Shown: positions 4,142-50,416 of the stretch, piece after piece | Numbering within the stretch: position 1 is the first letter of the stretch | Layout: each line of letters begins with the position of its first letter | Origin: Patescibacteria group bacterium | GTDB lineage: Bacteria > Patescibacteriota > Patescibacteriia > UBA9934 > GWF2-40-263 | NCBI GenBank assembly: GCA_004297215.1 | Contig: SCUM01000001.1 | Location: 289,181 to 353,180 of the forward strand | Reading direction: 5' to 3' | Length of the DNA: 64,000 bases | Notes under the pieces: model-generated | Databases searched by the model: none | Told to the model about the DNA's origin: nothing | What the model saw: only the letters and a program-made list of their open reading frames with translations | Position numbers and translations under genes: made by a program

Positions 4142-4151
4142 ATGGCCGCAT

Positions 4152-6800: not shown

Positions 6801-6827
6801 GTCCGGACGGTTCCTCCACGGCCCGGT

Positions 6828-7490: not shown

Positions 7491-7540
7491 ACGAAAGATT
7501 GTGCGCCTGTGGGGGCGGCGCGATTATGCGAACATCATAC

Positions 7541-7565
7541 CAAAAACCCCGCGAACGTTCGCGGG
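7541..7565 (-). terminator. Rho-independent terminator downstream of typA
   Basis: On the minus strand, hairpin CCCGCGAACGTTCGCGGG followed by a TTTTT run. Confidence 0.6.
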
Positions 7566-7580
7566 ACTCCTGTGCACAGC

Positions 7581-9398: not shown

Positions 9399-9432
9399 AA
9401 TGGGCGGATGGTAGCCAAAAATCGAATTCAGG

Positions 9433-9460
9433 TCAAGACAAAACCGCCTGAGGCGGTTCT
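9433..9460 (-). terminator. Rho-independent terminator downstream of tRNA-Lys
   Basis: On the minus strand, AACCGCCTCAGGCGGTT hairpin followed by TTTTG. Confidence 0.55.
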
Positions 9461-9466
9461 GACTGG

Positions 9467-9538
9467 TGGGTCGGGTGGGGATCGAACCCACGACCTTGGG
9501 CTTAAAAGGCCCCTGCTCTACCATTGAGCTACCGACCC
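9467..9538 (-). tRNA. tRNA-Lys (anticodon UUU)
   Basis: Manual cloverleaf: acceptor GGGTCGG/CCGACCC, D-arm GCTC-AATGGTA-GAGC, anticodon loop CTTTTAA, T-arm GTGGG-TTCGATC-CCCAC. Confidence 0.8.
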
Positions 9539-27913: not shown

Positions 27914-27941
27914 AGGCGTGTACGGTGAAGTATATCATTTC

Positions 27942-29339
27942 ATGCCTATGAAACGACTCGCCGCCGCCGCCTTCGTCCTGTCCGCGTTCCTCCCCGCCCT
28001 GCCGGCCGCAGCCGGCGAGTGCTGGTCCGAGCCCTATCACGAGGCGTCCGGCTCGGCCACGATCCGCTCGGCCGTGTTCATGCACGACGGCCCATGCCAG
28101 GAAAACACCTCGGTGCTCGCCACGGCCCCCACGGGCGCCAGCGTGAACGTGCTCGCGGAGGACCACGAGTGGTACCTCATCCGGCTGGACAACGGGGCAA
28201 CCGGCTGGGTGTGGCACACCTTCCTCAACCTCGGGGCGATTTCCCTGTCCGACTCCGACCGCGCCACCGTGGAATCCAAGTTCCCGCCCACCGGCGCCAC
28301 CGTCTCGGCCCCCGCCCCAACCACCTCAACAACCTCAACCACCTCAACCACCTCGTCCTCCTCCCTGCTCTCCCGCGTCACCGGCCACATCCTCCTGCAG
28401 GTGGAACAGCACGGCGAGGCCTGGTACGTGGACCCGCTCACGAGCGCCCGCTACTACATGAAGGACGGCCCCACGGCATATGAGATGATGCGCACCTTCG
28501 GGCTGGGAGTCACCGAAGGCGACTACGCGAAGATCGCCACCGGAAATGCCGATCTCAAGTCGCGTCTCAAGGGACGCATCGTGCTGCGCGTGCAACTCCA
28601 CGGCGAGGCGTATTACCTCCATCCCGATGGGTCGGTCTATTACCTGAAGGACGGCCCGGCCGCCTACGAGGTGATGCGCGCGCACTCGCTCGGGATCACC
28701 GACGCGGATCTCGCAAAGATCGCGTCGAAGACGCTCATCCTGAAACCCGTTTCCGCCTCAACCTCGACTTCAACCCCCTCAAGCTCCTCTAGCTCCTCAA
28801 GCTCCTTCTCCACGATCCGCATCTCCGACTCCCAGGAAGGGACGATCCCGTCGAACATCGACGTCATCGATCTCAACCGATACTGGATTTCGAAGATCAA
28901 CGCGCTGCGCGCGGAACGCGGGTTGAGACAGCTCGCGCTCGACCAGCGGTTCGTGGACACCGCAAGCGAATGGGCCGGCTACATGGGCGTGAACGACGAT
29001 CTCACGCACGAGCGCCCGGACGGCAAGACCATGCACCAGTGGATCGACGCCAAGGGCCTCGACTTCACGGAGCGTTATTCGCTCCCCGACGGGTGGACCA
29101 GCAACTACTTCACCGAGAACATCTCCTGGGATTTCACGGACGACTCGATGGACGGGGCGCGACAGGCGCTCGACAACACCCTCGCCTTCTATCTCGGAGA
29201 AGCGGCGAGCAACGGCCCGCACTACCGCACCGTCTACCACCCCGATTGGAACGCGGTGGGCGTCGGATTCCATTTCGCGCCCACGGACGACGGGTACAAG
29301 ATGGTGATGGCGTTCCACTACGGGAGCCTGGAACGCTAG
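27942..29339 (+). CDS. Secreted protein with an SH3b-like domain, two ~50-aa repeats and a C-terminal CAP/SCP/PR1-like domain
   Basis: Signal peptide MPMKRLAAAAFVLSAFLPALPAAAG. GWVWHTFL is SH3b-like. Duplicated motif G(H/R)I(L/V)LQV(E/Q)(Q/L)HGEAWY...YY(M/L)KDGPxAYE(M/V)MR. CAP-like C-terminus (GHYTQVVW-type region around HYRTVYHPDWNAVGVG). Confidence 0.6.
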   Translation: MPMKRLAAAAFVLSAFLPALPAAAGECWSEPYHEASGSATIRSAVFMHDGPCQENTSVLATAPTGASVNVLAEDHEWYLIRLDNGATGWVWHTFLNLGAISLSDSDRATVESKFPPTGATVSAPAPTTSTTSTTSTTSSSSLLSRVTGHILLQVEQHGEAWYVDPLTSARYYMKDGPTAYEMMRTFGLGVTEGDYAKIATGNADLKSRLKGRIVLRVQLHGEAYYLHPDGSVYYLKDGPAAYEVMRAHSLGITDADLAKIASKTLILKPVSASTSTSTPSSSSSSSSSFSTIRISDSQEGTIPSNIDVIDLNRYWISKINALRAERGLRQLALDQRFVDTASEWAGYMGVNDDLTHERPDGKTMHQWIDAKGLDFTERYSLPDGWTSNYFTENISWDFTDDSMDGARQALDNTLAFYLGEAASNGPHYRTVYHPDWNAVGVGFHFAPTDDGYKMVMAFHYGSLER

Positions 29340-37910: not shown

Positions 37911-38390
37911 TCATCCGTCGGGCGGCTTTGACGGGTTTTCCGGCTCGGCGCGGTCAGGAAACGACGGATCTCCGGGAATCATGAGCGAGAGGCAGGCGGC
38001 GTATCCCTTGTCCATCACGAGGATGTGGGTGGAAAGCCACGACCCTGCGTACTCCGCGATTTCCCTGGCGAACCGGCGGCGGTCATGGACCGTCCCGCGG
38101 ATCTGCGCGATGCGGCGCATCACCTCCTCGCGGAACGAGTTGTGGACGGCCACATGCTTCGCGCCATTCCCGCATTCGGGCAGGAGCAGGTGACGCTCCT
38201 CGGTGGCCAGGTGGAAGTAGGCGTAGTTGGCGAGCGCCATCACGTGCTCCTCCAGGATCTCCGGCGTGGCGTCATCCAGGCCGGCCGTGTCGATGAGCCG
38301 GTTGGCGAGGTCGAAGAACCGCCGATGCTGGCCGTCGATCAGGTCGTTTCCCAGAGCGTACTCGTCCTTCCAGGCGAAATGCTGTCCCAT
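37911..38390 (-). CDS. Bacteriohemerythrin (hemerythrin HHE cation-binding domain)
   Basis: W.DEY..G...ID.QH..F....N N-terminal signature plus downstream His/Glu ligand positions (H..E...H, H....D); 159 aa. Confidence 0.7.
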   Translation of the reverse strand: MGQHFAWKDEYALGNDLIDGQHRRFFDLANRLIDTAGLDDATPEILEEHVMALANYAYFHLATEERHLLLPECGNGAKHVAVHNSFREEVMRRIAQIRGTVHDRRRFAREIAEYAGSWLSTHILVMDKGYAACLSLMIPGDPSFPDRAEPENPSKPPDG

Positions 38391-38399
38391 ACCGCGTGC

Positions 38400-39779
38400 T
38401 TAGGCCGTCGTAACCGGCAGCTCGATCCAAAACGTGCTTCCCTTCCCCTCCTCGCTTTCGAATCCGATCCTGCCCCCGTGTTGTTCCACGAAATACTTGG
38501 AGATGTACAGCCCGAGGCCCGAGGAATCGGGTTTCATGGTGGAGGCGTTCGATGCGCGGAATAAGCGGTTGAACACGCGCGGCTGCTCCACCGCCGGGAT
38601 CCCGATGCCGGTGTCCTTCATGCTGAAGCGGATCGCGCCGTCGCGGTACTCGAGATTCGCGTCCACGCGGCCTTTTTCGGGAGTGTAGGTGACCGCGTTG
38701 TCCATGATCTTGGCGAAGACGTCGCGCAGCTTCTCGCCGTCGCCCTGGAGCGCGGGGAGCGGCGCGCTCGGCGGCGCGTACTCGCAGACGAGGTCCTTGA
38801 GCGTGCAGCGTTTCTTCCACTCGGCCAGCACCCCGTTCCAGATGGTTTCCACGGACACGGTCTCCTTGGAAACGAGGGCGCGCCCCTCCTCGATGTCCAT
38901 GGCCGTGAGCAGGTCGCGGATGCGGGAAATCACGTCGGTGTTGGCGTCGTAGGTGACGCGCAAGAACTCCTTCTGCTCGGCCTTGAGCGGCCCGAGCTGC
39001 TCGTTGAGCAGCGCCTCGATGTTCCAGCGGATGGCGTTGAGCGGGGTGCGGAACTGGTGCGTGACGATGCGGATGAACTTGTCCTTGAGCTGGTCGAGCT
39101 CCCTGATCCTCATCTGGGCCTTCTTCTCCTCGGTGACGTCCTGCACGGTGCCGTCCATTTCCAACGGCGTGCCGTCCTTCCCGTACGACACCTCGGCGCG
39201 CTCGTGCACGACGACGACGCTCCCGTCCGGGCGTACGACGCGATGCTCGATGTCGTACGGCGCATGCCCGCGGATCGACGCGTCGACGGCGCGCTTCACG
39301 AGATCGCGATCCTCGGGATGCACGCGCGCGAGGAACGCGTCGTAGGTGGGCTTGAACTCGCCCGGAGATGTTCCGAACATGCGATAGATCTCATCGGTCC
39401 ACGCGAGCGTCCCCGTAGGCACGTCCCATCGCCACGCCCCGATGTGCGCGAGGCGCTCGGCGTTTTGTAGCATCAGGTTGGTAGTCGTCGAATCCTTCTG
39501 GGACGCGAGCGCGTCGTCGAGCGCGTTGAGCATCGCAGTCCGCGCGTCCTGGAGTTCCTTCGTCTTGAGACGGAGCTTTTCGGCCTCCTCGGAAAGCCGT
39601 TTTTCGCGCTCGCGCCCTTCACGCGAGGAAATCTCGAGCGAACGATCCATGAGCGCGCGGTCCTCGTCAGCGCCCTCGTACGAACGGCTGACGGCCTCAA
39701 GCAACGGCCGGCATTCTTCCGGCACGGTCTCCAAGGTCCCGAAGGCCTTGCGCAGCTGTCGCTCGAGCAGCGGATGCAT
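38400..39779 (-). CDS. Cytoplasmic PAS-domain sensor histidine kinase
   Basis: Coiled-coil N-terminus, a PAS domain, HisKA H-box THQFRTPLNAIRWNIEAL, and HATPase_c G2 box GLGLYISKYFVEQHGGRI. Confidence 0.85.
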   Translation of the reverse strand: MHPLLERQLRKAFGTLETVPEECRPLLEAVSRSYEGADEDRALMDRSLEISSREGREREKRLSEEAEKLRLKTKELQDARTAMLNALDDALASQKDSTTTNLMLQNAERLAHIGAWRWDVPTGTLAWTDEIYRMFGTSPGEFKPTYDAFLARVHPEDRDLVKRAVDASIRGHAPYDIEHRVVRPDGSVVVVHERAEVSYGKDGTPLEMDGTVQDVTEEKKAQMRIRELDQLKDKFIRIVTHQFRTPLNAIRWNIEALLNEQLGPLKAEQKEFLRVTYDANTDVISRIRDLLTAMDIEEGRALVSKETVSVETIWNGVLAEWKKRCTLKDLVCEYAPPSAPLPALQGDGEKLRDVFAKIMDNAVTYTPEKGRVDANLEYRDGAIRFSMKDTGIGIPAVEQPRVFNRLFRASNASTMKPDSSGLGLYISKYFVEQHGGRIGFESEEGKGSTFWIELPVTTA

Positions 39780-39786
39780 ACGGCCT

Positions 39787-40932
39787 TCAGGCCTCGCGCA
39801 GCGTGGTGACGGTCATGGTCTGATTGTGCAGCCGGCACTGCTTCTCGGTCGCCGCCGAGGGCGAAATCTCGCCGTAAGAGTAGAACCCGCAGCTGGCGGC
39901 CTGCTCCCCGACCGCCGCGCGCACGGCCTCTATCTCCTCCTCCACGCGCTCCTTGAGCACGAGCTTGCGGCCCACGCAGCTCACGAGCACCGCAAGCTCG
40001 GCCTGCCCGTTGTCCAATCCTTCGATCCCCATCTTTCCCGCTCCGGATGCGCCGTCCACCAACCGGTCGAAATTCGCCTTCATGAGCCGCGCCAGCGCCC
40101 CTTGTGGCATGTCCCCGGCAAAGGTAAGGCTCTGCGCCTTCTCGTCGACGGCCAACAGCGTGCGCGTCACTTCTTCTTCTTCTTCTTCTTCTTTGAGCCG
40201 CACCTGCAGCGGGAAGAGCAATCCGCTCCCGGGCAGGTCCTTGGCCTTGTCCCCGAGATATTCCTTGTACAAGGCGAGCGCGGGCTTGCCGTCGATCTCG
40301 TAGAGCACGTTCCCTTCCGAACGCGTGATCACGCGCTCGGGCCCGAACGGGTCCCAGCCGCCCAGCGACCCGTGGCCCACGCGCAGCTGCGCGCCGTACA
40401 ACCCCACGAGCACGATCTGTCCCTCCGTTGCCGGGGCATCGAGCCCCACCAGCGTCTTCTTGAAATCCGCCCCGTCGCCCGAAAGCCCGCCTGTGACGGC
40501 CACGCCCTTGGGAAGCGCGCCGGCGAGCCCGCGCACGAGCCGCGTGCCGTTCACGCGCAATCCGTCGGAAAACACCATGGCGTGGACCAACCCCTCGTGC
40601 GGGAGGCACTGGCCGAGCTTGCGCCCCACTTCCTCGCTTTGCGCCGCATCCGAGATGGATTCCGCGCACGCGCGCACGGAGGAAGAGCGGAACCGCACGG
40701 CCGTGACCGAGAGCGACCCGTCGAGCACCTGCGCGCCGTGGATCTCCCCGGCCGTGGAGCAGCTCACGACATGCGCGTCCGGGTACATCGCCTTGAGTTC
40801 GGGATAGGTCGCGCTGTCCTCGAGCTTGGCGCGCGCGCCGAAGGCGAGCACGAGGTGCGCGCTTCCGGAAAGCTTCCCGGTGGCCGGTTTCCATCCGGTT
40901 TCCGCGGTCCACTGTTTCTGTTCTATCTCCAT
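39787..40932 (-). CDS. FIST-domain sensory protein (FIST_N plus FIST_C)
   Basis: 381 aa. The C-terminal GFYSYGEISP motif is typical of FIST_C. Also has an internal EEEEEEE tract. Confidence 0.55.
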   Translation of the reverse strand: MEIEQKQWTAETGWKPATGKLSGSAHLVLAFGARAKLEDSATYPELKAMYPDAHVVSCSTAGEIHGAQVLDGSLSVTAVRFRSSSVRACAESISDAAQSEEVGRKLGQCLPHEGLVHAMVFSDGLRVNGTRLVRGLAGALPKGVAVTGGLSGDGADFKKTLVGLDAPATEGQIVLVGLYGAQLRVGHGSLGGWDPFGPERVITRSEGNVLYEIDGKPALALYKEYLGDKAKDLPGSGLLFPLQVRLKEEEEEEEVTRTLLAVDEKAQSLTFAGDMPQGALARLMKANFDRLVDGASGAGKMGIEGLDNGQAELAVLVSCVGRKLVLKERVEEEIEAVRAAVGEQAASCGFYSYGEISPSAATEKQCRLHNQTMTVTTLREA

Positions 40933-40946
40933 ACGTCCCGTGGGAA

Positions 40947-42662
40947 TCAGGCGCCGGGCTTATCGCCGGTCGTCGCGTGTGGCGTCGCCGTGCCTGGCGA
41001 GGCATCCGCGCCCTCGGCCTGCGCCAGCCGCTTCTTGAGCTCGGCCATGCGCAGCTCGCGGCCCACCAAGTGCGCGTTCACGCGCTCGAGCTCGCGTTTT
41101 TCCGCTTCCAGCTCGCGGACGCGGTCGGCGACTTCCTTTTCCAGGCGTTGTGCGTACGAGCGCTGTTCCTCGGCGAGCCGCTTTTGCTGCGTCACGTCCT
41201 CGAGGATGAGCAGCGCCTCAAGCGCCTTGCGCCCGGCAAGCGGCGTGCCCGTGAGACGGAACGCCCGCCCGTCCGCTCCGGGAATCTCCCGCTCGAAGGG
41301 CGCTCCGGCGAGCGCGCCGCGCAGCTCCCCTTCGAGCGCGCGTTCCCGGCACCAGGCCGAGGCAAGCAGGCCGTCGCCTTCCATGACCCCGGTCCATTCC
41401 TTCGCGCGGGCGTTCGCGGACGCGACCGTCCCGTCGGCGGCGACCGTGATGATCCCCACCGGCGCCTGGGTGAACACGGCCTCGTAGAGCTGGTTGAGGC
41501 TGCCGAAATACTCGTCCAGGCGCTCGGCCATGGCGTTGACCCCCTGCGCGGCCTGGCCGATCTCGTCACGCTTGATGTCGGCGGCCGGCACGCGCGCGCC
41601 GAACTTCCCTTGCGCGAGCTCCTTGATGACCGCCGTGCACGCGCCCACGCGCCGGCCCATCACCACGCTCAACCCCACGCCCAACGAGGCCGAGAACGCC
41701 AAGGTGACGAACAGCACGAGCGCGTTCTGCGCGCGCGCCGCGCGCGCGGCCGCGTCCACTTCGGTCGTGTCGATTTCCGAGACGAGCGTCCACCATCTGC
41801 CCGCCTGGCAGCGCGAGGCGCCGATCACGGGCACACCGCGGTAGTCGATCCACTCTCCGGACGCGGATTCGCCGGCCTCGCGACATCGTCGCACCGGCTC
41901 GGTGTCGACCTTGACCTTGAGCACCACATCCGGGACGAAACGCGACGGAGTGACGAAATGGCCGTCCGCGTTCACCAGATAGGTCTCGAAGGTCGACTCG
42001 GGACGATCGGAAAGGATCTCTCCCAACAGCGCGGTGAGGTCGCGCGCCGAGACATGCAGCACGAGCACGCCGCCCGGCGTGCCTGCCTCCTTGGCGAGCG
42101 GGGCGGAAAAATGCAGGGTCGGCTCGGAGGGGTGTCCTTGCTCGTCACCCTCGAGGACGACGAAGCCGTTTGTCACGGTCTCCACGAACGAGGCGGCCAT
42201 GGCCCGGCGCCAGGCGTATTCGTATTCCAATTCCTCGGCGCTCTCGCTGTGTCCCACCCGCAGCGGCTCGGACGAGGCCACCACGCGCCCGTCGGCGTCG
42301 AACACTTCGGCAATCAGGATGGAACGATCGAGCGGCATCTTGAAGTCGCGCAAATACGCGCCGAGCTCGCGCGAGGCCTCCTGCGCCTCCGGGCTCTCCC
42401 TCGGCAGCGCGGCGATACGCGCGATCAGGGCGTTGATATGCCCGTCCGACGACCAATCGGACGCGCGCTTGGCGAGCCCGTCGAGGTACAGCGTGACGGA
42501 ACGCTCGGCAAGCTCCGCCGTGACGGCCACGTGCTCCGCGAACTTGTCCTCCACGCCCTGCCGGATGGTCCCCAGGCTCACGCCGAACACCACGAGGAGC
42601 GGGACGACCCCCGAAAGCACGAAGGCGAGGACGAGCTTGGAGCGGATGCGCATGGGACGCAA
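40947..42662 (-). CDS. Membrane sensor protein: periplasmic domain, TM, HAMP, PAS and a C-terminal coiled coil, with no catalytic output domain
   Basis: N-terminal TM LVLAFVLSGVVPLLVVFGV. HAMP-like IKELAQGKFGARVPAA...AQGVNAMAERL. PAS segment. Terminal heptads ELEAEKRELERVNAHL. Confidence 0.55.
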   Translation of the reverse strand: MRPMRIRSKLVLAFVLSGVVPLLVVFGVSLGTIRQGVEDKFAEHVAVTAELAERSVTLYLDGLAKRASDWSSDGHINALIARIAALPRESPEAQEASRELGAYLRDFKMPLDRSILIAEVFDADGRVVASSEPLRVGHSESAEELEYEYAWRRAMAASFVETVTNGFVVLEGDEQGHPSEPTLHFSAPLAKEAGTPGGVLVLHVSARDLTALLGEILSDRPESTFETYLVNADGHFVTPSRFVPDVVLKVKVDTEPVRRCREAGESASGEWIDYRGVPVIGASRCQAGRWWTLVSEIDTTEVDAAARAARAQNALVLFVTLAFSASLGVGLSVVMGRRVGACTAVIKELAQGKFGARVPAADIKRDEIGQAAQGVNAMAERLDEYFGSLNQLYEAVFTQAPVGIITVAADGTVASANARAKEWTGVMEGDGLLASAWCRERALEGELRGALAGAPFEREIPGADGRAFRLTGTPLAGRKALEALLILEDVTQQKRLAEEQRSYAQRLEKEVADRVRELEAEKRELERVNAHLVGRELRMAELKKRLAQAEGADASPGTATPHATTGDKPGA

Positions 42663-42705: not shown

Positions 42706-43542
42706 TCAAGAAACGTACACCCTCCGCGACGGCGGGATCGAGGCAATCGCCCGCTCGATGAGCGGCGCGACGGAAACTTGGGAAACCCACGCGGCGGGCG
42801 GACGCGTCGCGACCGTGTCCGTCACGATGATCTCGCGCACGCCCAGGCCGTGCAGCCTCTTCCAGGCCTCTCCGGCGAACAGCCCGTGCGTGACGCAAAT
42901 CAGGAGTTCCTTGGCGCCGGCGCGGCGCAGGCGTTCGCAGGCCGCGACCAGCGTGGAGCCCGTGTCGAGCTGGTCGTCCACGAGCACGCACCGGTTCCCC
43001 ACCGCGCCGACGGGCGCGCCGACCCGGACGCCGCGCGCGGTCCGCGCCTTCTCGAACCGCGTGACGGGACGCTTGTCCTTGAGCGCCCTGGCAACCGCCT
43101 CGCACCGCGCGACGGCGCCGTTGTCCGGAGCGACCAGCGTGGCGTCCTCCCATCCTCGGTCCAGGATCTCCTTCGCGAAAACCGGCGCGGGCGAGAGGGA
43201 AACGATCGGCACGGGGACCAGTTCCCTGTCCCGCAGGCTGTGCAGGTCCACGGTCACGATCCGACCGATGCCGGAGGCGCGGATGAGCTCCCCCAGCCAG
43301 GCGGTCGTGAGGCCAAGCCCCGGCTTCGCCTTGTCCTGGCGCATGTATGCCATGAACGGGATGACGGCCACCACCCGACCAGCCCCTTCCTTCTTGAGCG
43401 TATGCGCGGCAAGGAGCGTCTTAAGCAGGTTCTCGTCCGGAGGAGAAAAAGATCCGAACAGGGCGACCGTTCCGGAGAGCGTCGGGCATCCGGGAAGGTA
43501 CAGCTCCCCGTTCTCATAGCGGCGGAAGGCAAGCGTCGTCAT
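42706..43542 (-). CDS. prs: Ribose-phosphate pyrophosphokinase-like protein (divergent Prs)
   Basis: PFMAYMRQDK (compare Prs PYFGYARQDR) and the PRPP-binding loop VLVDDQLDTGSTL; 278 aa. Confidence 0.65.
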   Translation of the reverse strand: MTTLAFRRYENGELYLPGCPTLSGTVALFGSFSPPDENLLKTLLAAHTLKKEGAGRVVAVIPFMAYMRQDKAKPGLGLTTAWLGELIRASGIGRIVTVDLHSLRDRELVPVPIVSLSPAPVFAKEILDRGWEDATLVAPDNGAVARCEAVARALKDKRPVTRFEKARTARGVRVGAPVGAVGNRCVLVDDQLDTGSTLVAACERLRRAGAKELLICVTHGLFAGEAWKRLHGLGVREIIVTDTVATRPPAAWVSQVSVAPLIERAIASIPPSRRVYVS

Positions 43543-44168
43543 ACTTGTTTCATCATGGCGACCACCTCTTCGTCGCTCACCTGGTCGAACGCCTCGTAAT
43601 AATTGCCGATGGACCCGAGGAACATCGCCGGCTCGTGCAAGACGACGACCTCGTCAACCTCCTTCCCAAGCTCGCGCAGCGTATCGCGCGCCGCCACCGG
43701 GACCGCGATCACGACGGAAGACGGTTCGCGCGTCCGAAGCTCCGACAACGCCGCCTTCATGGTGAGCCCGGTCGCGATCCCGTCGTCGACCACGATGGCG
43801 GCCTTGCCCTTCACGGGGACGGCCGGTCTCCCGGAGAGGTATCGCTCGCGCCGTCGGCGGGCTTCCTCGCGTTGCCGTCGGACTTCCTCGTCGAACCATT
43901 TCGGATCCGCGGACCGGACTTCGTCCTCCTGACGCACGACGGCGCCCGTTTCCGTCACGGAGGCGATGGCGTATTCGGGGTTGTCCGGATGGCCGATCTT
44001 GCGTGGGATGAGCAGGTCGAGCGGGGCCTTGAGGGCCTTTGCGACCGCGACGCCCAGCACCACGCCCCCGCGCGGCAGGGCGTACACGACGACGGGCTTG
44101 CCGGCATAGGGCCGGAGCGCGTCGACGAGCTGCCGTGCCGCGTCCGCGCGATCCTTGAATCGGGGCAT
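43539..44168 (-). CDS. Phosphoribosyltransferase-family protein (PRTase type I fold, about 209 aa)
   Basis: Start MPRFKDRADAARQL at 44168. PRPP-binding motif AAIVVDDGIATGLTM. Overlaps the prs start by 4 nt. Confidence 0.65.
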   Translation of the reverse strand: MPRFKDRADAARQLVDALRPYAGKPVVVYALPRGGVVLGVAVAKALKAPLDLLIPRKIGHPDNPEYAIASVTETGAVVRQEDEVRSADPKWFDEEVRRQREEARRRRERYLSGRPAVPVKGKAAIVVDDGIATGLTMKAALSELRTREPSSVVIAVPVAARDTLRELGKEVDEVVVLHEPAMFLGSIGNYYEAFDQVSDEEVVAMMKQV

Positions 44169-44179
44169 AGGTCGATACC

Positions 44180-47100
44180 CTATTGGCCCGAAGCGGCAGG
44201 GGCAGATCGGACGAACGCGTTCAGGGCCGCCCTCGTAAGCGGTCCGACCAGGCCGATGGGCGGGATGTTCTTCAATGCCTGAAACGCGGCGACGGCGCGC
44301 TGGGTGATCGGTCCATAGGTGCCGGAGGCGGACACGTCTTCTGGGAAATGCTTGAGGCACCGAAGGATCTCCTGCAGTCGTACGACCGCGTCACCGACGT
44401 TCCCAGGGCCGAGGTTCGAGGTGAACGGCGAGGACAGGACGCAGGCGGAGGCCACCGGCTCGGGGGCCCTAGCCTCGACGCACATGGCCGGATCGTCCTT
44501 CGCGTTGATCGTGCGGATGCTCCCCGCGGCCTCGTGGGTGTCGTTCCAGACCACCCGATCGAGCTTCGGCTCCCCGCGCAAGGACACCTGGAGCGCCAGG
44601 CGGTGGTGCCAGGCGGCGTCCAGTTCGAGCAGTTCGAACGTGACGGCGGAACAGTCGCGTGTATCGACTAGGACGCGGACGTCGTTGTAGTCGAAATCCC
44701 GTCCGGAATCCTCGAACCCGACGATGGTCCTGCCGTCGGCGGCGGGCGTCACGCGGACGTACGGCGTCCCCATATGCCGTTCGGTCCCGTCCGGGTTCAC
44801 GATGTACAGGTCGTACCCGACCTCGTCGCACGCGACCTCGCACGGCGCTGGCAGAGCGTCCGCAGCGGGGACGGACGGAGGAGGCTCGACGTCGGTCGTG
44901 GGCGGAAGCGGCGGGAGGACGCCGGCAGGATCGACGTAGGGTTCTTCCACGTCCTCGACGATCGGAAGGATCGCCCCGACGACGTACGCGCCGTCCTCGT
45001 TGGCGTCGATGAGCGCGTACTGGCCGATGCCAAGATGCGAATCCGGCCAGATGAGCAGGTCACTCACGAGCGCTCCCGCGTTGGACAAGGCGATGCGCAC
45101 GTTGTGGAGCCACCCGGCGTCCACCGCGAGCACGGTCACCACGATCCTGGTCCAGTCCGAGTAGTCCACCCGGATCACGACGTCGTCGAAGTCGAAGTCC
45201 GATCCCTTGTCCTCGAACCGGATGATGTCCACGGTGTCGCTCACGCGCTCGACGCGCGCGTACCGCGGGTCGGTCATGTGGCGCTCGGTCCCGTCGGGAT
45301 TCACGATGTAGATGTCGTAGGACGCGGCGGAGAAGTCGACGTCCGGCGGGGCGGGTTGCGACGGCACGGGTTCGGTCACGGGGCTCGGCGGCGGAAGTTC
45401 GCTCGTCGTCTCCGGCGCGGACGGTTCCGGGGAGGTCGTCGTCCCGGTGTCGGATCCGGGATTGCTCGGAGGGTTCACGACGATGCTCCCTCCCCCGCTG
45501 CGCCGGGTGATTGAGAAGGAGATGTCCGTGGCGTCCGCAGCGGCATACGTCCCGTCGGCGTCGATGTCCGCATCGATGGTGCAGGTGCCAGCCGCGACGA
45601 ACGTGACGATGCCGGTGGTCGAGCCGATGGTGCACACTCCGGTCGTGGTGCTCGTGTACGTCTTGGTACCGGCTCCAGCGGAAGCGGTGGACGTGATGGT
45701 CGGCTCCGCTTCGGTGATCAGGTAACTCGACTCGTACGAGCCCGCGTCGATGGTGAGCGTGCGGGCGGCGAGGGTCACGCTGAAGGAGATGTCCGTGGCG
45801 TCGGCCGTGTCATAGGTGCCGTCGGCGTCGATGTCCGCATCGATGGTGCAGGTGCCGGCGGACACGAACGTGACGATCCCCGTGGTGGAACCGATGGTGC
45901 ACACGCCGGTCGTGGTGCTCGTGTACGTCTTGGTACCGGCTCCAGCGGAAGCGGTGGACGTGATGGTCGGAGGCGTGTCCGTGAGCTCGTAGCTGGCGAC
46001 GTACGAGCCCGCGTCGATGGTGAGCGTGCGGGCGGCGAGGGTCACGCTGAAGGAGATGTCCGTGGCGTCGGCCGCGTCGTAGGTGCCGTCGGCGTCGATG
46101 TCGGCGTCGATGGTGCAGGTGCCGGCCGCGACGAAGGTGACGATACCTGTGGTGGAACCGATGGTGCAGACGCCGGTCGTGGTGCTCGTGTAGCTCTTCG
46201 TCCCCGTTCCGGCGGAGGCGGTCGACGTGATGGTGGGCGGGGTGTCCGTGAGCGAATAGCTGGAGACGTACGAGCCTGCGTCGATCGTGAGCGTGCGGGC
46301 GGCCAAGGTGACCGAGAACGAAATGTCCGTCGCGTCGGCCGTGTCATAGGTGCCGTCGGCGTCGATGTCGGCGTCGATGGTGCAGGTGCCGGCCGCGACG
46401 AAGGTGACGATGCCGGTCGTTGATCCGATTGTACAGACGCCTGTGGTCGTGCTCGTGTACGTCTTCGTTCCCGTCCCGGCGGAGGCGGTCGACGTGATGG
46501 TCGGGGGCGTGTCCGTCATGGAGTAACTGGCCACGTACGAGCCCGCGTCGATGGTGAGAGTGCGGGCGGCCAGCGTCACCGAGAACGAGATGTCCGTCGC
46601 GTCGGCCGTGTCATAGGTGCCGTCGCTCGCGATGTCGGCATCGATCGTGCAGGTGCCGGCCGCGACGAAGGTGACGATGCCGGTGGTCGAGCCGATGGTG
46701 CACACGCCAGTCGTGGTACTCGTGTACGTCTTGGTGCCGGCTCCAGCGGAAGCGGTGGACGTAATCGTCGGCGGCGTGTCCGTGAGCGTGTAGCTCGCGA
46801 CGTACGAGCCGGCGTCGATGGTGAGGGTACGGGACGCCAGGCTCGTGGTGAAGTTCAGGATGGATCCTTCGAACGCGGTCGTGCAAGAGACGTTCGGATA
46901 CGTGCCGGTGAGCGCGCTCGTGCACGCGCGGATCTTGAAATAATAGGTGATCCCGGAGGTGAGGCCGGTCACGGCATAGCTGAACGGCTGGGTGGACGAC
47001 CCGCCGGCCGTGAGCGCGGCCGTGCCGGTGCCGTCGTCGACGGTGACGGTCGTCGTCCCGGAAGAAAGATCCGAGACGGTGCCGTACACGAACTGGATGC

Positions 47101-48970
47101 CGGTGATCGGGGTCAGGTTCGGGTTGATAGTGCCGTTCACCGTCGCCGTAGTCGCGGCCACGCTCGTCGCGGCGGTCGTGGTGGGGGTCGGGTCCGCGAG
47201 CACCGCAAGCGTGGTGAACGACAGGATGGTCCCCTGGGCCGATCCCGCCTTCACGCGATAATAGTAGGTCGTGCCGGACGAGAGGCCAGTGAGGCCGAGG
47301 CTGACCGCCGTCGGGTCCGTGAGCCCGTCGAGCGTGCCGGAGGCCGGCGTGGTCGCGGTCGTGGTCGTCGCCCCGACCAAGGTCGGGCTGGTGCCATACT
47401 CGAACTGGCCGGTGAGCACCGCCGTGCCGTTGGGGTCCACCGTGCCGTTGAGCGTCGCGGCGGAGGCGGTGATACTCGTGGCCGGATCCGTGACTGCCGA
47501 GATGCTGAAATCCGCCGTATCGGCGACGACCCCGACCGTGCTGGTGCCTGTGGAGGTGACCGTAATCCTCGACATCGCTGACGCCGTCGCTCCCACGAGG
47601 AAATCGCCGATCTTGGCGTATGCGGTGTTCGCGAAGCTGCCCACCGGCACCCACATCTCGTAGTCGATGCTCGCGGTCGTGCCGGAATTGAGCGTGAACG
47701 GGCCGGTGAAATGCAGCGGCTTGGGGGCCGCGTCCGCGGTGACGGTCACAGGGTCGCCGATCGCGACCCCGGTGCGGCCGATGTCGGTGACGGTCGCGCT
47801 TCCCGGAATGAAGATGGGGCCGGTTGGCGCTTGGTCCACGAACTCGTCCACCGTGAGCGTGGTGGCCGTCGTCGAAGAGGCGGTGAGGCGGTACGGGACC
47901 TCCACGTACGTCTCGCCGCTGCCGCTTTCCCCGGGAACCGCGCACGCGCCCGTGCAGTCCACGACCGTGAGCCCGGTGGTGGTCGTGACGCTCTTGGTAA
48001 GCGCCGCGTTGATGGTGAGCGAGGCGAACGAGATGTCGAGGGTGCCGCCCGCGGCGCCGGTGTCGGAGTGCTTCACCTGGGTGCCGCTCGCGATCTGGGC
48101 GATCGGCACGGCCGTGACCGTGCTCGTTGGGCGCCCCACCACGCGGAAGCCGTAGGAGATGCGGTATTCGGAGTTGTCGACGTTGGTGAGGCCGTTCGCC
48201 CCCGTGATGAGCAGCTGGTTCGCGTAGGTCACCTGGTCGGCGGTGTTGGCCCAGTTGGCGTTGCCGTCGAAGGTGATGGACACGCTTTCAAGGCGCAGCG
48301 CCCGCGTGGGCCAGGTGGACACGGCCGCGGGCGCGAGCCAGATGATGTCGAAATCCGGGGTGGAACCCGCGCCGATCTGCCCGGTCTGGCCCTCGACCGT
48401 GATCGTGACCAGCTGCCCGAGCTCCGGCGAGGTGTCCGAGACCTCGATCGCCGCGGCGCTCGTGAGCCCGTTGTCCGCGAGCTTGTTGGAGGCCGCCTTG
48501 ATGGTCTCCTGCACCTTGGAGAACGAGAAGTCGCATTCGTACAGCACCGTGGCGCCCGCAAGGTCGGGGCGGTCGTCGTACACCTTGAGCGTGTGCCCCT
48601 GCGCCGACATGGTGGCGCCGGTCGCCTTCAGCATGAAGTAGGAGGTGCCGGTCGAGCCATCGGCGAGCGTCGGGAGTTGCATGGCGCTGTCCAGCGCGTT
48701 CGCGAGCGACACGTTGGACCCCGTGAAGGAACTCACCTGCGCCCACAGGCTCGATTGCGAGGATCCCGTCCCGTTGGTCACCCGGTAACCGATGTAGCCC
48801 GCGTCGAGCACCGGCGTGACGCCCGTGTCGATGTAAAACACGTTCCCATGGCTCGGGACCACCGTGATGCCGTTTTGCGCCGCCGCGCCCGAGGAGCAGG
48901 TGACGGCGGAGACGTCGTGGACGTTCGCGAACAGGGACGCGAACGCGGCAAAGACGATGATGCCGCACAT
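44180..48970 (-). CDS. Giant cell-surface protein (~1596 aa): signal peptide, FN3/Ig-like modules, five tandem ~88-aa repeats, two DUF4114-like modules, and a C-terminal peptidoglycan-binding domain
   Basis: Signal peptide MCGIIVFAAFASLFANVHDVSA. FN3-like ...SGTTYYYRVKAGS. Five copies of LAARTLTIDAGSYVASY..TDTPPTITSTASAG.GTKTYTSTTTGVCTIGSTTGIVTFVAAGTCTIDADI..DGTYD.ADATDISFSVT. Two copies of YD(I/L)YIVNPDGTERHM...FED(K/S)G(S/R)DFD(F/Y)(D/N)DV. PG-binding GNVGDAVVRLQEILRCLKHFP...GTYGPITQRAVAAFQ. Confidence 0.8.
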   Translation of the reverse strand: MCGIIVFAAFASLFANVHDVSAVTCSSGAAAQNGITVVPSHGNVFYIDTGVTPVLDAGYIGYRVTNGTGSSQSSLWAQVSSFTGSNVSLANALDSAMQLPTLADGSTGTSYFMLKATGATMSAQGHTLKVYDDRPDLAGATVLYECDFSFSKVQETIKAASNKLADNGLTSAAAIEVSDTSPELGQLVTITVEGQTGQIGAGSTPDFDIIWLAPAAVSTWPTRALRLESVSITFDGNANWANTADQVTYANQLLITGANGLTNVDNSEYRISYGFRVVGRPTSTVTAVPIAQIASGTQVKHSDTGAAGGTLDISFASLTINAALTKSVTTTTGLTVVDCTGACAVPGESGSGETYVEVPYRLTASSTTATTLTVDEFVDQAPTGPIFIPGSATVTDIGRTGVAIGDPVTVTADAAPKPLHFTGPFTLNSGTTASIDYEMWVPVGSFANTAYAKIGDFLVGATASAMSRITVTSTGTSTVGVVADTADFSISAVTDPATSITASAATLNGTVDPNGTAVLTGQFEYGTSPTLVGATTTTATTPASGTLDGLTDPTAVSLGLTGLSSGTTYYYRVKAGSAQGTILSFTTLAVLADPTPTTTAATSVAATTATVNGTINPNLTPITGIQFVYGTVSDLSSGTTTVTVDDGTGTAALTAGGSSTQPFSYAVTGLTSGITYYFKIRACTSALTGTYPNVSCTTAFEGSILNFTTSLASRTLTIDAGSYVASYTLTDTPPTITSTASAGAGTKTYTSTTTGVCTIGSTTGIVTFVAAGTCTIDADIASDGTYDTADATDISFSVTLAARTLTIDAGSYVASYSMTDTPPTITSTASAGTGTKTYTSTTTGVCTIGSTTGIVTFVAAGTCTIDADIDADGTYDTADATDISFSVTLAARTLTIDAGSYVSSYSLTDTPPTITSTASAGTGTKSYTSTTTGVCTIGSTTGIVTFVAAGTCTIDADIDADGTYDAADATDISFSVTLAARTLTIDAGSYVASYELTDTPPTITSTASAGAGTKTYTSTTTGVCTIGSTTGIVTFVSAGTCTIDADIDADGTYDTADATDISFSVTLAARTLTIDAGSYESSYLITEAEPTITSTASAGAGTKTYTSTTTGVCTIGSTTGIVTFVAAGTCTIDADIDADGTYAAADATDISFSITRRSGGGSIVVNPPSNPGSDTGTTTSPEPSAPETTSELPPPSPVTEPVPSQPAPPDVDFSAASYDIYIVNPDGTERHMTDPRYARVERVSDTVDIIRFEDKGSDFDFDDVVIRVDYSDWTRIVVTVLAVDAGWLHNVRIALSNAGALVSDLLIWPDSHLGIGQYALIDANEDGAYVVGAILPIVEDVEEPYVDPAGVLPPLPPTTDVEPPPSVPAADALPAPCEVACDEVGYDLYIVNPDGTERHMGTPYVRVTPAADGRTIVGFEDSGRDFDYNDVRVLVDTRDCSAVTFELLELDAAWHHRLALQVSLRGEPKLDRVVWNDTHEAAGSIRTINAKDDPAMCVEARAPEPVASACVLSSPFTSNLGPGNVGDAVVRLQEILRCLKHFPEDVSASGTYGPITQRAVAAFQALKNIPPIGLVGPLTRAALNAFVRSAPAASGQ
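45495..46850. repeat. Five tandem ~265-bp DNA repeats encoding the 88-aa protein repeats of the giant surface protein
   Basis: Near-identical blocks beginning (minus-strand sense) around 46850, 46590, 46323, 46055, 45790 and 45522. Confidence 0.75.
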
Positions 48971-49068
48971 CCCGATCGCCTTGCCCGCCGAAAACGAGCC
49001 GATTTGACATCGCATATATTGACCCTATCCTACCATGTTCCAATGGAACAGGAGGCGTCCCGTCTCGC

Positions 49069-49218
49069 CTATGCCTCCTCCTGCGGGATTTCGACCGTCA
49101 CCCACCAGTCGTCGTTTTCGCAGCGGTAAAAGACCCTGTCGTACTTTTTTCGGCGGTCGCCGTAGCTCACGTCCTGCCGGAGCTGGCGCATGTTCCGATT
49201 GCAGTTCGGGCATTTCAT
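49069..49218 (-). CDS. Small hypothetical protein (49 aa, CPNC...C, partial zinc-ribbon-like)
   Basis: MKCPNCNRNM...YRCENDDWW. GC3-biased codons and no clear SD. It sits where secE would usually follow tRNA-Trp. Confidence 0.35.
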   Translation of the reverse strand: MKCPNCNRNMRQLRQDVSYGDRRKKYDRVFYRCENDDWWVTVEIPQEEA

Positions 49219-49283
49219 ACGTGAAAATCGTATCACGGCGCGGCGGGAAGCGAAAAATCCCGCTTGAACGAGCGGGATTTTGG

Positions 49284-49354
49284 CAGGGACGGTGGGAATC
49301 GAACCCACGTCAGAGGTTTTGGAGACCTCCGTCCTACCATTGAACGACGTCCCT
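49284..49354 (-). tRNA. tRNA-Trp (anticodon CCA)
   Basis: Manual fold: acceptor AGGGACG/CGTCCCT, anticodon stem GAGGT/ACCTC with loop CTCCAAA, T-arm GTGGG-TTCGATT-CCCAC. Confidence 0.75.
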
Positions 49355-49371
49355 ACGCCGCGGCAGTATGT

Positions 49372-49400
49372 CAAAAACCCGCCCTCTTGTGAAGGGCGGG
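49372..49400 (-). terminator. Rho-independent terminator after rpmG
   Basis: On the minus strand, CCCGCCC-TTCACAAGA-GGGCGGG followed by TTTTT. Confidence 0.6.
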
Positions 49401-49410
49401 GTCTTGATGC

Positions 49411-49566
49411 TTACTTGGTCTCCTTGTGCGGCTGGTGGGCGCGGCAGCCTTTGCAGAACTTCGAAAGCTCCAGGCGCTCCTTGAGCGTCTTCTTGTTCTT
49501 GTGGCTCTGGTAATTGACCGTCTTGCACTGCGTGCACTCCAGCTTGATGAGGAAATCTTGGGACAT
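49411..49566 (-). CDS. rpmG: 50S ribosomal protein L33
   Basis: Hand translation gives MSQDFLIKLECTQCKTVNYQSHKNKKTLKERLELSKFCKGCRAHQPHKETK, which carries the L33 CxxC...CxxC zinc-ribbon and KNKK...ERLEL.K signature. It is under 60 aa, so absent from the ORF track. Confidence 0.8.
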   Translation of the reverse strand: MSQDFLIKLECTQCKTVNYQSHKNKKTLKERLELSKFCKGCRAHQPHKETK

Positions 49567-49623
49567 AATTGGCAATCTGATTGGTCGGAACCTTACGGAA
49601 AAACGCGATTCGTGTCAAGGGAG

Positions 49624-49699
49624 TGGAGCCGTTGACCGGGATTGAACCGGTGACCTCATCCTTACCATGGATGTGCTCTACCAACTGAGCTACAACGGC
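49624..49699 (-). tRNA. tRNA-Thr (anticodon GGU), CCA encoded
   Basis: GCCGTTG-TA-GCTCAGTTGGTAGAGC-A-CATCC-ATGGTAA-GGATG-AGGTC-ACCGG-TTCAATC-CCGGT-CAACGGC-T-CCA. Confidence 0.85.
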
Positions 49700-49790
49700 A
49701 TATTTCTTCTACCAAGTCCGACGCCCTGATGGGGTCGGACCCCCGACCTGCGCCGCAGCGCAGCGTCGGGGCTGAGCTACAACGGCGTGT
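49700..49790 (-). pseudogene. tRNA-Thr 5' fragment (acceptor plus D-arm, 25 nt, identical to tRNA-Thr GGU) interrupted in the D-loop by a structured 57-nt insert; non-functional tRNA-like element
   Basis: Minus strand reads GCCGTTGTAGCTCAG[CCCCGACGCTGCGCTGCGGCGCAGGTCGGGGGTCCGACCCCATCAGGGCGTCGGAC]TTGGTAGAagaaatat and is immediately followed by the intact tRNA-Thr(GGU). Confidence 0.5.
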
Positions 49791-49837
49791 TTTTATCGCG
49801 ATGGCCCCGCCAGCCGAAGCCCCTCAAGGGCGAAGGC

Positions 49838-49912
49838 TGGAGCCGCCTGTCGGATTTGAACCGACGACCTGCTGTTTACAAAACAGCTGCTCTACCCCTG
49901 AGCTAAGGCGGC
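49838..49912 (-). tRNA. tRNA-Thr (anticodon UGU), CCA encoded
   Basis: GCCGCCT-TA-GCTCAGGGGTAGAGC-A-GCTGT-TTTGTAA-ACAGC-AGGTC-GTCGG-TTCAAAT-CCGAC-AGGCGGC-T-CCA. Confidence 0.8.
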
Positions 49913-49913
49913 G

Positions 49914-50150
49914 TTATTCAAGCTTCCAAGTCCCATCCATAAGCTTTTCCTTCTTTATCCTCGACCAGCCCTTAATCTGACGTTCTCTTCTTCTTGCACA
50001 CAGGAGGATCTTGTGGATCTCGTAGTATACGAGACGGACGGGAAGCCGTTTTGCCGTCCATAAAGCGGCCCTGCCCGCACGATGATCTTCCATCCTTCGC
50101 AGAAGATTTTCAGAACAACCTACATAATAACTGCCATCGCCACATTCCAA
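49914..50150 (-). CDS. GIY-YIG nuclease-domain protein (YhbQ/UPF0213-like)
   Basis: VYMLECGDGSYYVGCSENLLRRMEDHRAG...LVYYE follows the GIY-YIG pattern. The start (GTG or ATG near 50150) is uncertain; the ORF track extends to 50246. Confidence 0.55.
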   Translation of the reverse strand: MECGDGSYYVGCSENLLRRMEDHRAGRAALWTAKRLPVRLVYYEIHKILLCARRRERQIKGWSRIKKEKLMDGTWKLE

Positions 50151-50167
50151 CATGTACACGACGACGC

Positions 50168-50301
50168 GCCCTTCGACAAGCTCAAGGCATTCGACTCCTT
50201 TCCTGTTCCCTACGGAAGCGTTTTGCGTCGTATGGTCGCAGACCATGAGCGATCGTCTACCACGGACTCACTGCCCTTCGACAAGCTCAGGGCATTCGAC
50301 T
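50168..50301. repeat. Two 29-nt direct repeats GCCCTTCGACAAGCTCA(A/G)GGCATTCGACT, 105 nt apart, between the GIY-YIG gene and tRNA-Tyr
   Basis: Copies at 50168-50196 and 50273-50301, identical except for one position. Confidence 0.7.
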
Positions 50302-50330
50302 ACCACATAAACGGCACGAAGGTAGTCGAA

Positions 50331-50416
50331 TGGTGGGTGGAGAAGGGTTCGAACCTTCGAAGGCGTGAGCCAGGAGATTTACAGTCTCCCCCGTTTGACC
50401 ACTTCGGTATCCACCC
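50331..50416 (-). tRNA. tRNA-Tyr (anticodon GUA), long variable arm, CCA encoded
   Basis: GGGTGGA-TA-CCG-AAGTGGTCAAA-CGG-G-GGAGA-CTGTAAA-TCTCC-TGGCTCACGCCTTC-GAAGG-TTCGAAC-CCTTC-TCCACCC-A-CCA. Confidence 0.8.

Follow-up and report, generated by a model that had tools for sequence, protein, structure and literature searches.

In a stretch of 64,000 nucleotides from a Patescibacteria group bacterium (contig SCUM01000001.1, positions 289,181 to 353,180; hereafter the window), a single long open reading frame (ORF) on the minus strand, from 44180 to 49015, encodes a protein of 1611 amino acids (aa). Judging from its sequence and from predicted structures, and with a rough probability of 0.6, this protein is a fibrillar adhesin-like surface protein, exported by the Sec pathway in a Patescibacteria cell of the monoderm type and held non-covalently on the peptidoglycan. 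A first-pass annotation, made from the letters alone, had proposed a large secreted surface protein with repeats, and this is supported. The functional class suggested there, an adhesin or cell-contact protein, is also the best fit, the N-terminal fold being like that of Gram-positive adhesin domains and being accompanied by a triad of the CLIPPER type. All the rival explanations are less well supported.

The ORF is a genuine protein-coding gene. Its codon statistics are typical of the real genes in the window (GC content at third codon positions, GC3, of 0.90), in contrast to an Arg-rich antisense ORF with a GC content at first codon positions (GC1) of 0.89, and its product is identical over the full length (100%) to GenBank entry TAK03860.1, which has the same 1611-aa model and lies on a contig of 842,311 bp; the gene occupies 4.8 kb of this ~0.84-Mb contig. 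The extent given by the first-pass annotation was right as to the gene and wrong as to its 48970 end, which is an internal codon (Met16): GenBank uses the upstream ATG at 49015, and only this longer start provides a charged n-region (R2, K12) for a signal peptide. The N-terminal segment aa 5-38 is the sole hydrophobic segment of the protein, cleavage is likely to occur after aa 37, between VSA and VT, and the mature N-terminus lines up with those of the homologues. The mature protein, of ~161 kDa and pI 4.1, is rich in Thr (16%), Ala and Ser.

The N-terminal module and its third subdomain

The most conserved part of the protein is a 463-aa all-beta module at its N-terminus (aa 38-500), which is the signature of the family and which the first-pass annotation did not discuss. 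No Pfam family matches aa 38-500 at E <= 1, no recurrent Pfam family was found over aa 38-334 among 47 relatives, and no PDB relative of the module was found by sequence, a profile of 47 sequences giving no credible match. A search of 1.84 billion cluster representatives (50% identity) yielded 623 matches to the module at E <= 1e-3 and 249 at E <= 1e-30, and it stands nearly always directly after a signal peptide. Among GTDB species genomes it is found in Candidatus Lloydbacteria (64% identity), in many Actinomycetota (among them Planktophila, Microbacteriaceae, Kineosporia and Actinosynnema) and in Acidimicrobiia, and it is scattered also in Proteobacteria, Acidobacteria and cyanobacteria.

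The AlphaFold2 (AF2) model of the module, built on a 70-sequence alignment, is all-beta, with a predicted local distance difference test (pLDDT) of 91.4 and a predicted TM-score (pTM) of 0.85. Its best PDB matches by Foldseek are C123 of S. gordonii antigen I/II (7l0o), the immunoglobulin (Ig)-like domains of PrgB (8beg), the leg domains of integrin alpha, Cna (2f6a), the doubly isopeptide-bonded C-terminal domain of SspB (2wza) and the EbpB pilin; probabilities are ~1.0 and global TM-scores ~0.2. The likeness to C123 of the antigen I/II proteins (SspB, SpaP, AspA, BspA), to PrgB and to Cna lies in these matches and in a string of three Ig-like domains; the antigen I/II C-domains carry Lys-Asn isopeptide bonds (title of PDB entry 2wza). 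The differences are the low TM-scores, a lack of sequence similarity even by profile, and the position of the module, which here is at the N-terminal tip and not beside an LPXTG anchor.

The first ~300 residues of the module, i.e. its subdomains 1 and 2, which form the putative tip, are conserved even more than the K341/D394/N463 triad of the third subdomain (see below). Across phyla, N177, S310, G311, K315 and H316 are present in 47 of 47 sequences, T312 and Q313 in 46 and D63 in 45, and the D63/N177/K315/H316 motif is intact in 209 of 213 closer relatives. Given the order D..N..K, and the predicted location of N177 in a coil between subdomains, this is not the canonical CnaA arrangement (K..D..N); the D63/N177/S310-H316 cluster could cross-link two domains, hold a metal or another ligand, or form a network of hydrogen bonds. 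Two known chemistries were considered for the tip. A thioester (Cys-Gln) domain was rejected on account of C161, which is kept only among close relatives (16/47 across phyla) and which most likely pairs with C40 as a disulfide. Ester-bond domains of the Thr-Gln type have the signature HxDxxDxxQ, and this is absent from the protein.

A more specific proposal is that aa 38-334 constitute an undescribed, widespread tip domain, shared by Patescibacteria and ultra-small planktonic Actinobacteria, whose cluster forms a new intramolecular cross-link or a ligand pocket. We advance it only tentatively, as rather improbable on present data; if true, the sharing between both groups could reflect gene transfer between epibiont and host and a common mechanism of cell-cell recognition.

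The conservation of the tip also bears on the possibility that the protein is a structural coat or fibril component, forming an S-layer-like or 'hairy' layer for protection or spacing without any specific ligand. Its very acidic (pI 4.1), Thr/Ala/Ser-rich composition would suit such a coat, as would the purifying selection on the stalk domains as spacers and the fact that homologues are common in free-living ultra-small planktonic Actinobacteria (Planktophila, Rhodoluna, Microbacteriaceae). However, it is the distal tip that is most conserved, with an invariant polar cluster not expected of a passive coat, and nothing points to self-assembly or to a lattice-forming domain, the Pfam scan having given no match to the S-layer homology (SLH) domain. 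A coat function is for these reasons regarded as unlikely.

The third subdomain (aa 335-500) can be related to known families through its homologues. When the 47 aligned relatives were scanned singly against Pfam, 23 matched DUF11 (PF01345), 15 DUF7927 and 9 DUF7507; in the relatives examined individually these matches fall within the final ~110 residues of the module, and several exceed the cutoff, the best being that of Geobacter sp. AOG1 (43.1 bits against a cutoff of 24.6). Neither subdomain 3 alone nor one DUF11-matching relative gave a PDB match by sequence. DUF11 ("CLIPPER"), DUF7927 and DUF7507 are CnaA-like domains in which a first-strand Lys and a late-strand Asn form an isopeptide bond under Asp catalysis, and for DUF11 the bond has been proven by the crystal structure 9IFR, with Lys715, Asp748 and Asn806 (PMC12617251). 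The candidate residues K341, D394 and N463 are placed in strands by the AF2 model. In compact relatives D lies at K+35 and N at K+96, compared with +33 and +91 in 9IFR (PMC12617251), and this protein has an extra ~20-residue loop in the subdomain, containing C354 and C358.

The triad is K-D-N in 33 of the 47 sequences and K-D-D in two, and in eight all three positions have become hydrophobic together. Such an all-or-none pattern is what a functional triad predicts, although the eight losses may represent few events. From the pattern of residues, an isopeptide bond between K341 and N463 probably locks subdomain 3.

The proposed stalk and its five repeats

The module is followed by two FN3-like domains. 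Pur_ac_phosph_N (PF16656) matches aa 508-602 with 26.7 bits (cutoff 30) and fn3 (PF00041) matches aa 674-704 with 21.8 bits (cutoff 25), so that the FN3-like modules of the first-pass annotation find matches of the expected kind, both of them under the Pfam cutoffs. The term 'FN3-like' is reasonable all the same, since most homologues have recorded matches to these families. The annotation had also called for a search with hidden Markov models (HMM), and this placed PG_binding_1, DUF4114 (in part) and the Big-like family of the repeats above their cutoffs, the FN3 families being the part that did not follow.

Next come five tandem repeats. Tandem Repeats Finder reports a period of 267 bp and 5.0 copies (score 1849, 45514-46841), and in register the copies occupy aa 729-817, 818-906, 907-995, 996-1084 and 1085-1173; the five-copy array had been recognized from the start, with a unit of 88 aa (~265 bp) that is corrected here to 89 aa (267 bp). 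Each repeat corresponds to one of five stretches matching the Big-like family PF22359 (30.9 bits against a cutoff of 27) and contains two Cys residues, 17 residues apart. The repeats are indeed Thr/Ser-rich, as had been noted, with 25.6% Thr and 10.8% Ser.

At the protein level copies 1-4 are 92-96% identical to one another and 83-85% identical to copy 5. As DNA, all pairs are 80-89% identical, with 29-53 nucleotides differing per 267 bp, and not >90% identical as had been claimed. Among copies 1-4, 180 of 227 differences (~80%) fall at codon position 3; by the Nei-Gojobori method, synonymous divergence (dS) is 0.31-0.75 and non-synonymous divergence (dN) 0.04-0.12, with dN/dS of 0.05-0.39. 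Because the DNA divergence is mostly synonymous, the copies are old, individually distinguishable and under purifying selection. Moreover, the synonymous pattern is distinct in each copy and there is no sign of recent gene conversion; and, since each copy carries its own set of 29-53 substitutions, collapse or expansion of the array by the assembler is unlikely. A repeat scan of 43000-50000 found no other repeat and no simple-sequence tract in or beside the gene, its sole other hit being a 21-bp, 2.2-copy repeat ~300 bp away, in the neighbouring gene.

These data decide against the idea, put forward in the first-pass annotation, that the repeats expand and contract and confer phase or length variation, i.e. 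that the protein is an adhesin whose repeats recombine frequently and differ in copy number within a population. Copy numbers of 0-13 among homologues, in-register identical runs of up to 65 bp and a recent two-unit duplication in a sister protein (94-95% DNA identity) speak for it; the divergence of 80-89% identity and dS 0.31-0.75 between copies, the private synonymous pattern of each and the lack of simple-sequence tracts speak against it, and it now retains only a slight probability.

Gram-positive adhesins with variable repeats include SasG/Aap, the alpha C protein and Bap. Repeat polymorphism has also been described for the Bap of Acinetobacter (PMC4647330). The protein shares with such adhesins a stalk of tandem 80-110-aa Ig-like repeats and a copy number that differs between lineages; it differs from them in that their arrays consist of near-identical DNA, which drives recombination, a feature not found here.

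The comparison with relatives gives the time frame of these events. Homologues with 0-13 copies have a mean within-protein identity between repeats of 32-80%, compared with 90% here. The closest full-length orthologue, P0003 (L061:8001-13913), has seven repeats, and its units 2-3 and 4-5 derive from a recent duplication of a two-unit block (97-99% identical as protein, 94-95% as DNA). Between P0003 and the present protein the tip shows a dS of 1.22 and a dN of 0.15, and the repeats differ by a proportion of non-synonymous differences (pN) of 0.19-0.23; therefore the five copies postdate the split from P0003, yet arose long ago, and purifying selection has preserved their likeness as protein. 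In the family, then, length does change over evolutionary time, and in this gene such change is not visible. The longest in-register identical run between copies ranges from 21 to 65 bp, depending on the pair.

A comparison of copy number between strains, which the first-pass annotation had suggested, found no strain-level relative: those from the metagenome scan are only 39-46% identical, and the best match of the genome scan is from Candidatus Lloydbacteria (64% identity). The protein with the closest tip (P0020, 85% identity, on the ENA contig L060 with 2.2x coverage) turns into Arg-rich nonsense beyond ~aa 515; it probably stems from a chimeric or frameshifted low-coverage contig and does not represent a short natural variant, and it is unusable for the comparison of repeats.

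The putative wall-binding end

Neither an LPXTG-type motif nor a C-terminal hydrophobic segment was found in the 1611-aa protein, which places it outside the sortase-anchored class, and the Pfam scan of the protein gave no SLH match. The C-terminus carries a PG_binding_1 domain instead, in agreement with the mode of anchoring that had been proposed. PG_binding_1 (PF01471) matches with 36.1 bits (cutoff 23), aa 1541-1598 covering positions 2-57 of the 57 in the profile, and the N-terminal peptidoglycan-binding region of an L,D-transpeptidase (PDB 4lpq) matches by sequence at E = 4.2e-6. In the AF2 model of the C-terminus, built on a 19-sequence alignment, the domain consists of three helices (pLDDT >90), which Foldseek superimposes on the N-terminal domain of SleB (6tci) with a TM-score of 0.89 and a root-mean-square deviation of 1.2 A over 72 residues; further matches are a Streptomyces DD-peptidase (1lbu), the peptidoglycan-binding domains of phiKZ gp144 and other phage endolysins, and LdtA. 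On HMM, sequence match and predicted fold together, the identity of the domain is solid, so that the PG_binding_1-like domain noticed in the first pass stands in full. From this identity, the domain would attach the protein non-covalently to the cell's own peptidoglycan.

The architecture of the family agrees with a C-terminal anchor. In close homologues, many of which have PG_binding_1 at their end, aa 38-500 and the FN3-like pair are common to all, and repeats and C-termini differ: DUF4114 and PG_binding_1 in the nearest Patescibacteria, an OmpA-like peptidoglycan-binding domain (PF00691) in Actinobacteria, and DUF11-type repeats in other homologues, including one labelled Saccharimonadales. 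It is from this combination of a shared tip and FN3 pair with varied C-terminal peptidoglycan-binding domains that the C-terminus is taken as the anchor and the N-terminus as the conserved end. Among the ultra-small Actinobacteria of the freshwater plankton (Planktophila, Nanopelagicaceae, Rhodoluna, Microbacteriaceae), homologues that have the tip together with the FN3 pair are common, and many of these homologues include the OmpA-like domain as well; transfer between planktonic actinobacterial lineages and Patescibacteria is possible.

Two DUF4114-like modules precede the PG_binding_1 domain. Both comprise ~120 aa and are predicted as beta-sandwiches (pLDDT >90), and the Pro-rich segments that separate them are predicted to be disordered; each opens with YD(I/L)YIVNPDGTERHM and contains the acidic motif FED.G.DFD(F/Y)(D/N)DV, in which F210 and D221 show no variation among 19 relatives and E211 and D212 almost none. 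Pfam DUF4114 (PF13448) scores 36.1 bits (cutoff 27) over two stretches, which cover only positions 37-83 of the 85 in the profile. With a match above the cutoff, though partial, and the motif in both, the two modules named in the first-pass annotation are confirmed.

Two precedents exist for the function of such domains: in the mannose-binding protein of Acanthamoeba (AcMBP-1) the DUF4114 region has been shown experimentally to be the mannose-binding domain (PMC11934332), and in PilY1.1 of M. xanthus DUF4114, by way of a putative Ca2+ site, is required for twitching that depends on exopolysaccharide (PMC9109919). By analogy, the modules described here may bind glycans in a Ca2+-linked manner. 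The likeness to AcMBP-1 and PilY1.1 consists of the DUF4114 match above cutoff and the conserved acidic motif; the differences are that only half of the profile is matched here, that the ~120-aa modules stand beside a wall anchor and that no PDB fold match was obtained for them.

The C-terminal cassette is rare, with 20 matches in a word-indexed search of 5.8 billion proteins. One of its relatives, P0244, is a protein of 541 aa which aligns over 97% of the cassette (two DUF4114-like modules and PG_binding_1) with 52% identity; it is too short to hold a tip and a stalk, which suggests that the cassette is a portable anchor module.

The existence of such a cassette can also be read in the opposite sense, with PG_binding_1 and the lectin-like DUF4114 modules gripping the wall of a host bacterium and the remainder of the protein staying with its producer. 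Patescibacteria frequently live as epibionts; in Paceibacteria, a part in host attachment has been proposed for proteins that contain peptidoglycan-binding domains (PMC10936435); sugar binding by DUF4114 is known from other proteins (PMC11934332, PMC9109919); and the occurrence of the cassette on the short P0244 would fit as well. Nevertheless, the cleavage site of the signal peptide is of the conventional kind, and the protein has no other membrane anchor; the homologues of free-living Actinobacteria likewise have a peptidoglycan-binding (OmpA-like) domain; and in the family the C-terminus is variable and the N-terminus conserved, which fits an anchor adapted to the wall of the producer. This reversed topology is accordingly held to be quite improbable.

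A role as a cell-wall or glycan-active enzyme, with Ser, His, Asp and Lys of the tip as a catalytic site delivered by PG_binding_1, is the least credible of the explanations: PG_binding_1 occurs typically in peptidoglycan hydrolases and L,D-transpeptidases and the conserved S310, H316, D63 and K315 could in principle be catalytic, but the tip is predicted to be made up wholly of beta-sandwiches of the Ig-like type, which in the PDB match the stalk or binding domains of adhesins, no catalytic domain of Pfam or NCBIfam was found in the protein, and ~1000 residues of stalk separate the tip from the PG_binding_1 domain.

The proposed assembly of the protein, its setting and its meaning

A fibrillar adhesin-like protein of this kind would be assembled as follows. 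After Sec export and removal of the signal peptide after VSA37, the three-helix PG_binding_1 domain would grip the cell's own peptidoglycan non-covalently, and the two DUF4114-like modules, with acidic and probably Ca2+-binding motifs, would make further contacts with glycans or wall polymers; both Pro-rich linkers would cross the wall, leaving these modules within or just above it. Further out, eight Ig-/FN3-like domains (the five Big-like repeats, the FN3-like pair and the CLIPPER-like domain, the last probably locked by the K341-N463 bond) would form a rigid stalk, whose rod shape is suggested by the domain content. This stalk would hold the conserved, two-lobed ~300-aa tip, with its D/N/S/Q/K/H cluster, tens of nanometres off the wall, where it would probably bind a partner cell, a host cell or a surface. 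In this scheme the five repeats would be fixed spacers under purifying selection and not a variable switch.

A close parallel is with the CLIPPER fibrillar adhesins (PMC12617251), with which the protein shares a signal peptide, a distal non-repeat module, a stalk in which Ig-like domains stand in tandem and a module for wall attachment at the C-terminus, as well as one stalk domain that is homologous to DUF11 via its relatives and has the Lys/Asp/Asn triad. It differs from them in having a single such domain, with main repeats of the Big-like family (PF22359), and in being anchored by PG_binding_1 and not by a sorting signal. Within the Patescibacteria, giant DUF11/FN3 surface proteins have been proposed for host attachment in Vampirococcus lugosii, a predator of the candidate phyla radiation (CPR) (PMC8080830), and highly expressed proteins combining a peptidoglycan-binding domain with Ig-like folds have been proposed for the same role in parasitic Paceibacteria (PMC10936435). 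All these are proteins of >1300 aa from small-genome Patescibacteria with Ig/FN3/DUF11-type and peptidoglycan-binding domains; they are likened by domain content only, and the functions of the others are also proposals.

Several points weigh against the adhesin-like reading. The tip is without a characterised relative, and the TM-scores of ~0.2 indicate that the fold class alone, and not a specific family, is shared with the known adhesins. DUF11 does not match this protein directly in Pfam. The DUF4114 match is partial, being limited to the C-terminal half of the profile, and Foldseek gave no confident PDB fold match for these modules (probability <0.25). Relatives occur in free-living planktonic Actinobacteria, for which host attachment is no obvious need. 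Finally, the housekeeping genes in the neighbourhood offer no functional hint.

Features of the gene and its product in the window (positions count from the first nucleotide of the window).
Feature	Positions	Strand	Basis or remarks
Whole gene	44180..49015	(-)	1611 aa + stop; = TAK03860.1, 'hypothetical protein EPO34_01720', Patescibacteria group bacterium
Signal peptide, aa 1-37	48905..49015	(-)	n-region R2 + K12, hydrophobic core GIIVFAAFASLFA, likely cleavage site between VSA and VT
Tip module, subdomains 1-2, aa 38-334	48014..48904	(-)	all-beta, no Pfam family, invariant polar cluster
Subdomain 3, aa 335-500	47516..48013	(-)	divergent DUF11/CLIPPER-type (CnaA-like) Ig domain; candidate triad K341/D394/N463
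Two FN3-like domains, aa 501-728	46832..47515	(-)	sub-cutoff Pfam matches; kept in all close homologues
Five tandem 89-aa Big-like (PF22359) repeats, aa 729-1173	45497..46831	(-)	Tandem Repeats Finder, Pfam, in-register alignment
Pro/Ser/Thr-rich linker 1, aa 1174-1229	45329..45496	(-)	sequence
DUF4114-like beta-sandwich module 1, aa 1230-1349	44969..45328	(-)	acidic motif FEDKGSDFDFDDV
Pro-rich linker 2, aa 1350-1397	44825..44968	(-)	predicted disordered, pLDDT <50
DUF4114-like beta-sandwich module 2, aa 1398-1528	44432..44824	(-)	acidic motif FEDSGRDFDYNDV
PG_binding_1 three-helix domain, aa 1529-1611	44183..44431	(-)	Pfam, PDB sequence match, predicted fold

As regards the genomic setting, a phosphoribosyltransferase gene begins 14 bp downstream of the stop codon and is followed by a gene for a protein like phosphoribosyl pyrophosphate (PRPP) synthase; because no terminator-like site was found in the 14-bp gap, the big gene is probably co-transcribed with these two. 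On the upstream side there is a small Cys-containing ORF and then a tRNA-Trp/Thr/Thr/Tyr cluster. The small ORF (49069-49217, minus strand; 49 aa, MKCPNCNRNM...YRCENDDWW...) has a CxxC motif and one more Cys and lies between tRNA-Trp and the big gene; the cluster itself (Trp, Thr-GGT, Thr-TGT, Tyr) spans 49281-50416 on the minus strand and includes, between tRNA-Thr and tRNA-Tyr, a 110-aa ORF (49914-50246) which by eye resembles a GIY-YIG nuclease domain. Other neighbours encode triosephosphate isomerase, an M16 peptidase, a tRNA synthetase and sensor kinases. No sortase, pilus, secretion or glycosylation gene was found nearby, and no operon partner among the neighbours.

Elsewhere in the window, sensory genes are dense between 33890 and 42662; among their products are two histidine kinases, one of 1053 aa with a dCache-HAMP-GAF-PAS architecture and the other with PAS (38400-39779), as well as a dCache-HAMP-PAS protein (40947-42662), a FIST protein (39787-40932) and a hemerythrin (37911-38390). 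To our knowledge, such a density is unusual for a Patescibacteria genome (the window has 65% GC). The product of the gene at 27156-29339 on the plus strand, a protein of 727 aa in which SH3_3 and CAP (cysteine-rich secretory protein family) domains are combined, may be another secreted or wall-associated protein, although this is a guess. An ORF of 1902 aa (3819-9527, plus strand) looked like a second giant protein and was rejected as an antisense artefact of the high GC content: it is Arg-rich, has a GC1 of 0.88 and no Pfam match. On the opposite strand, the ORFs 4152-6800 and 7581-9524 (both minus) have gene-like codon statistics.

The genomes of Patescibacteria are tiny, and for most of these bacteria a life in attachment to other cells is assumed, yet very few of their attachment proteins have been defined. 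The protein described here is a concrete candidate for an attachment factor, and three parts can be told apart in it: a putative peptidoglycan-binding anchor, a stalk domain of the isopeptide type and a strongly conserved tip. Its repeats correct a tempting wrong inference: units that look identical in the protein may be old and stable at the level of DNA. As a whole the protein belongs to a recognised kind, that of the fibrillar adhesins, as a new member without a name; the tip recurs in hundreds of proteins of Patescibacteria and Actinobacteria, and it is this uncharacterised and widely distributed domain, with its invariant polar cluster, that may merit follow-up.

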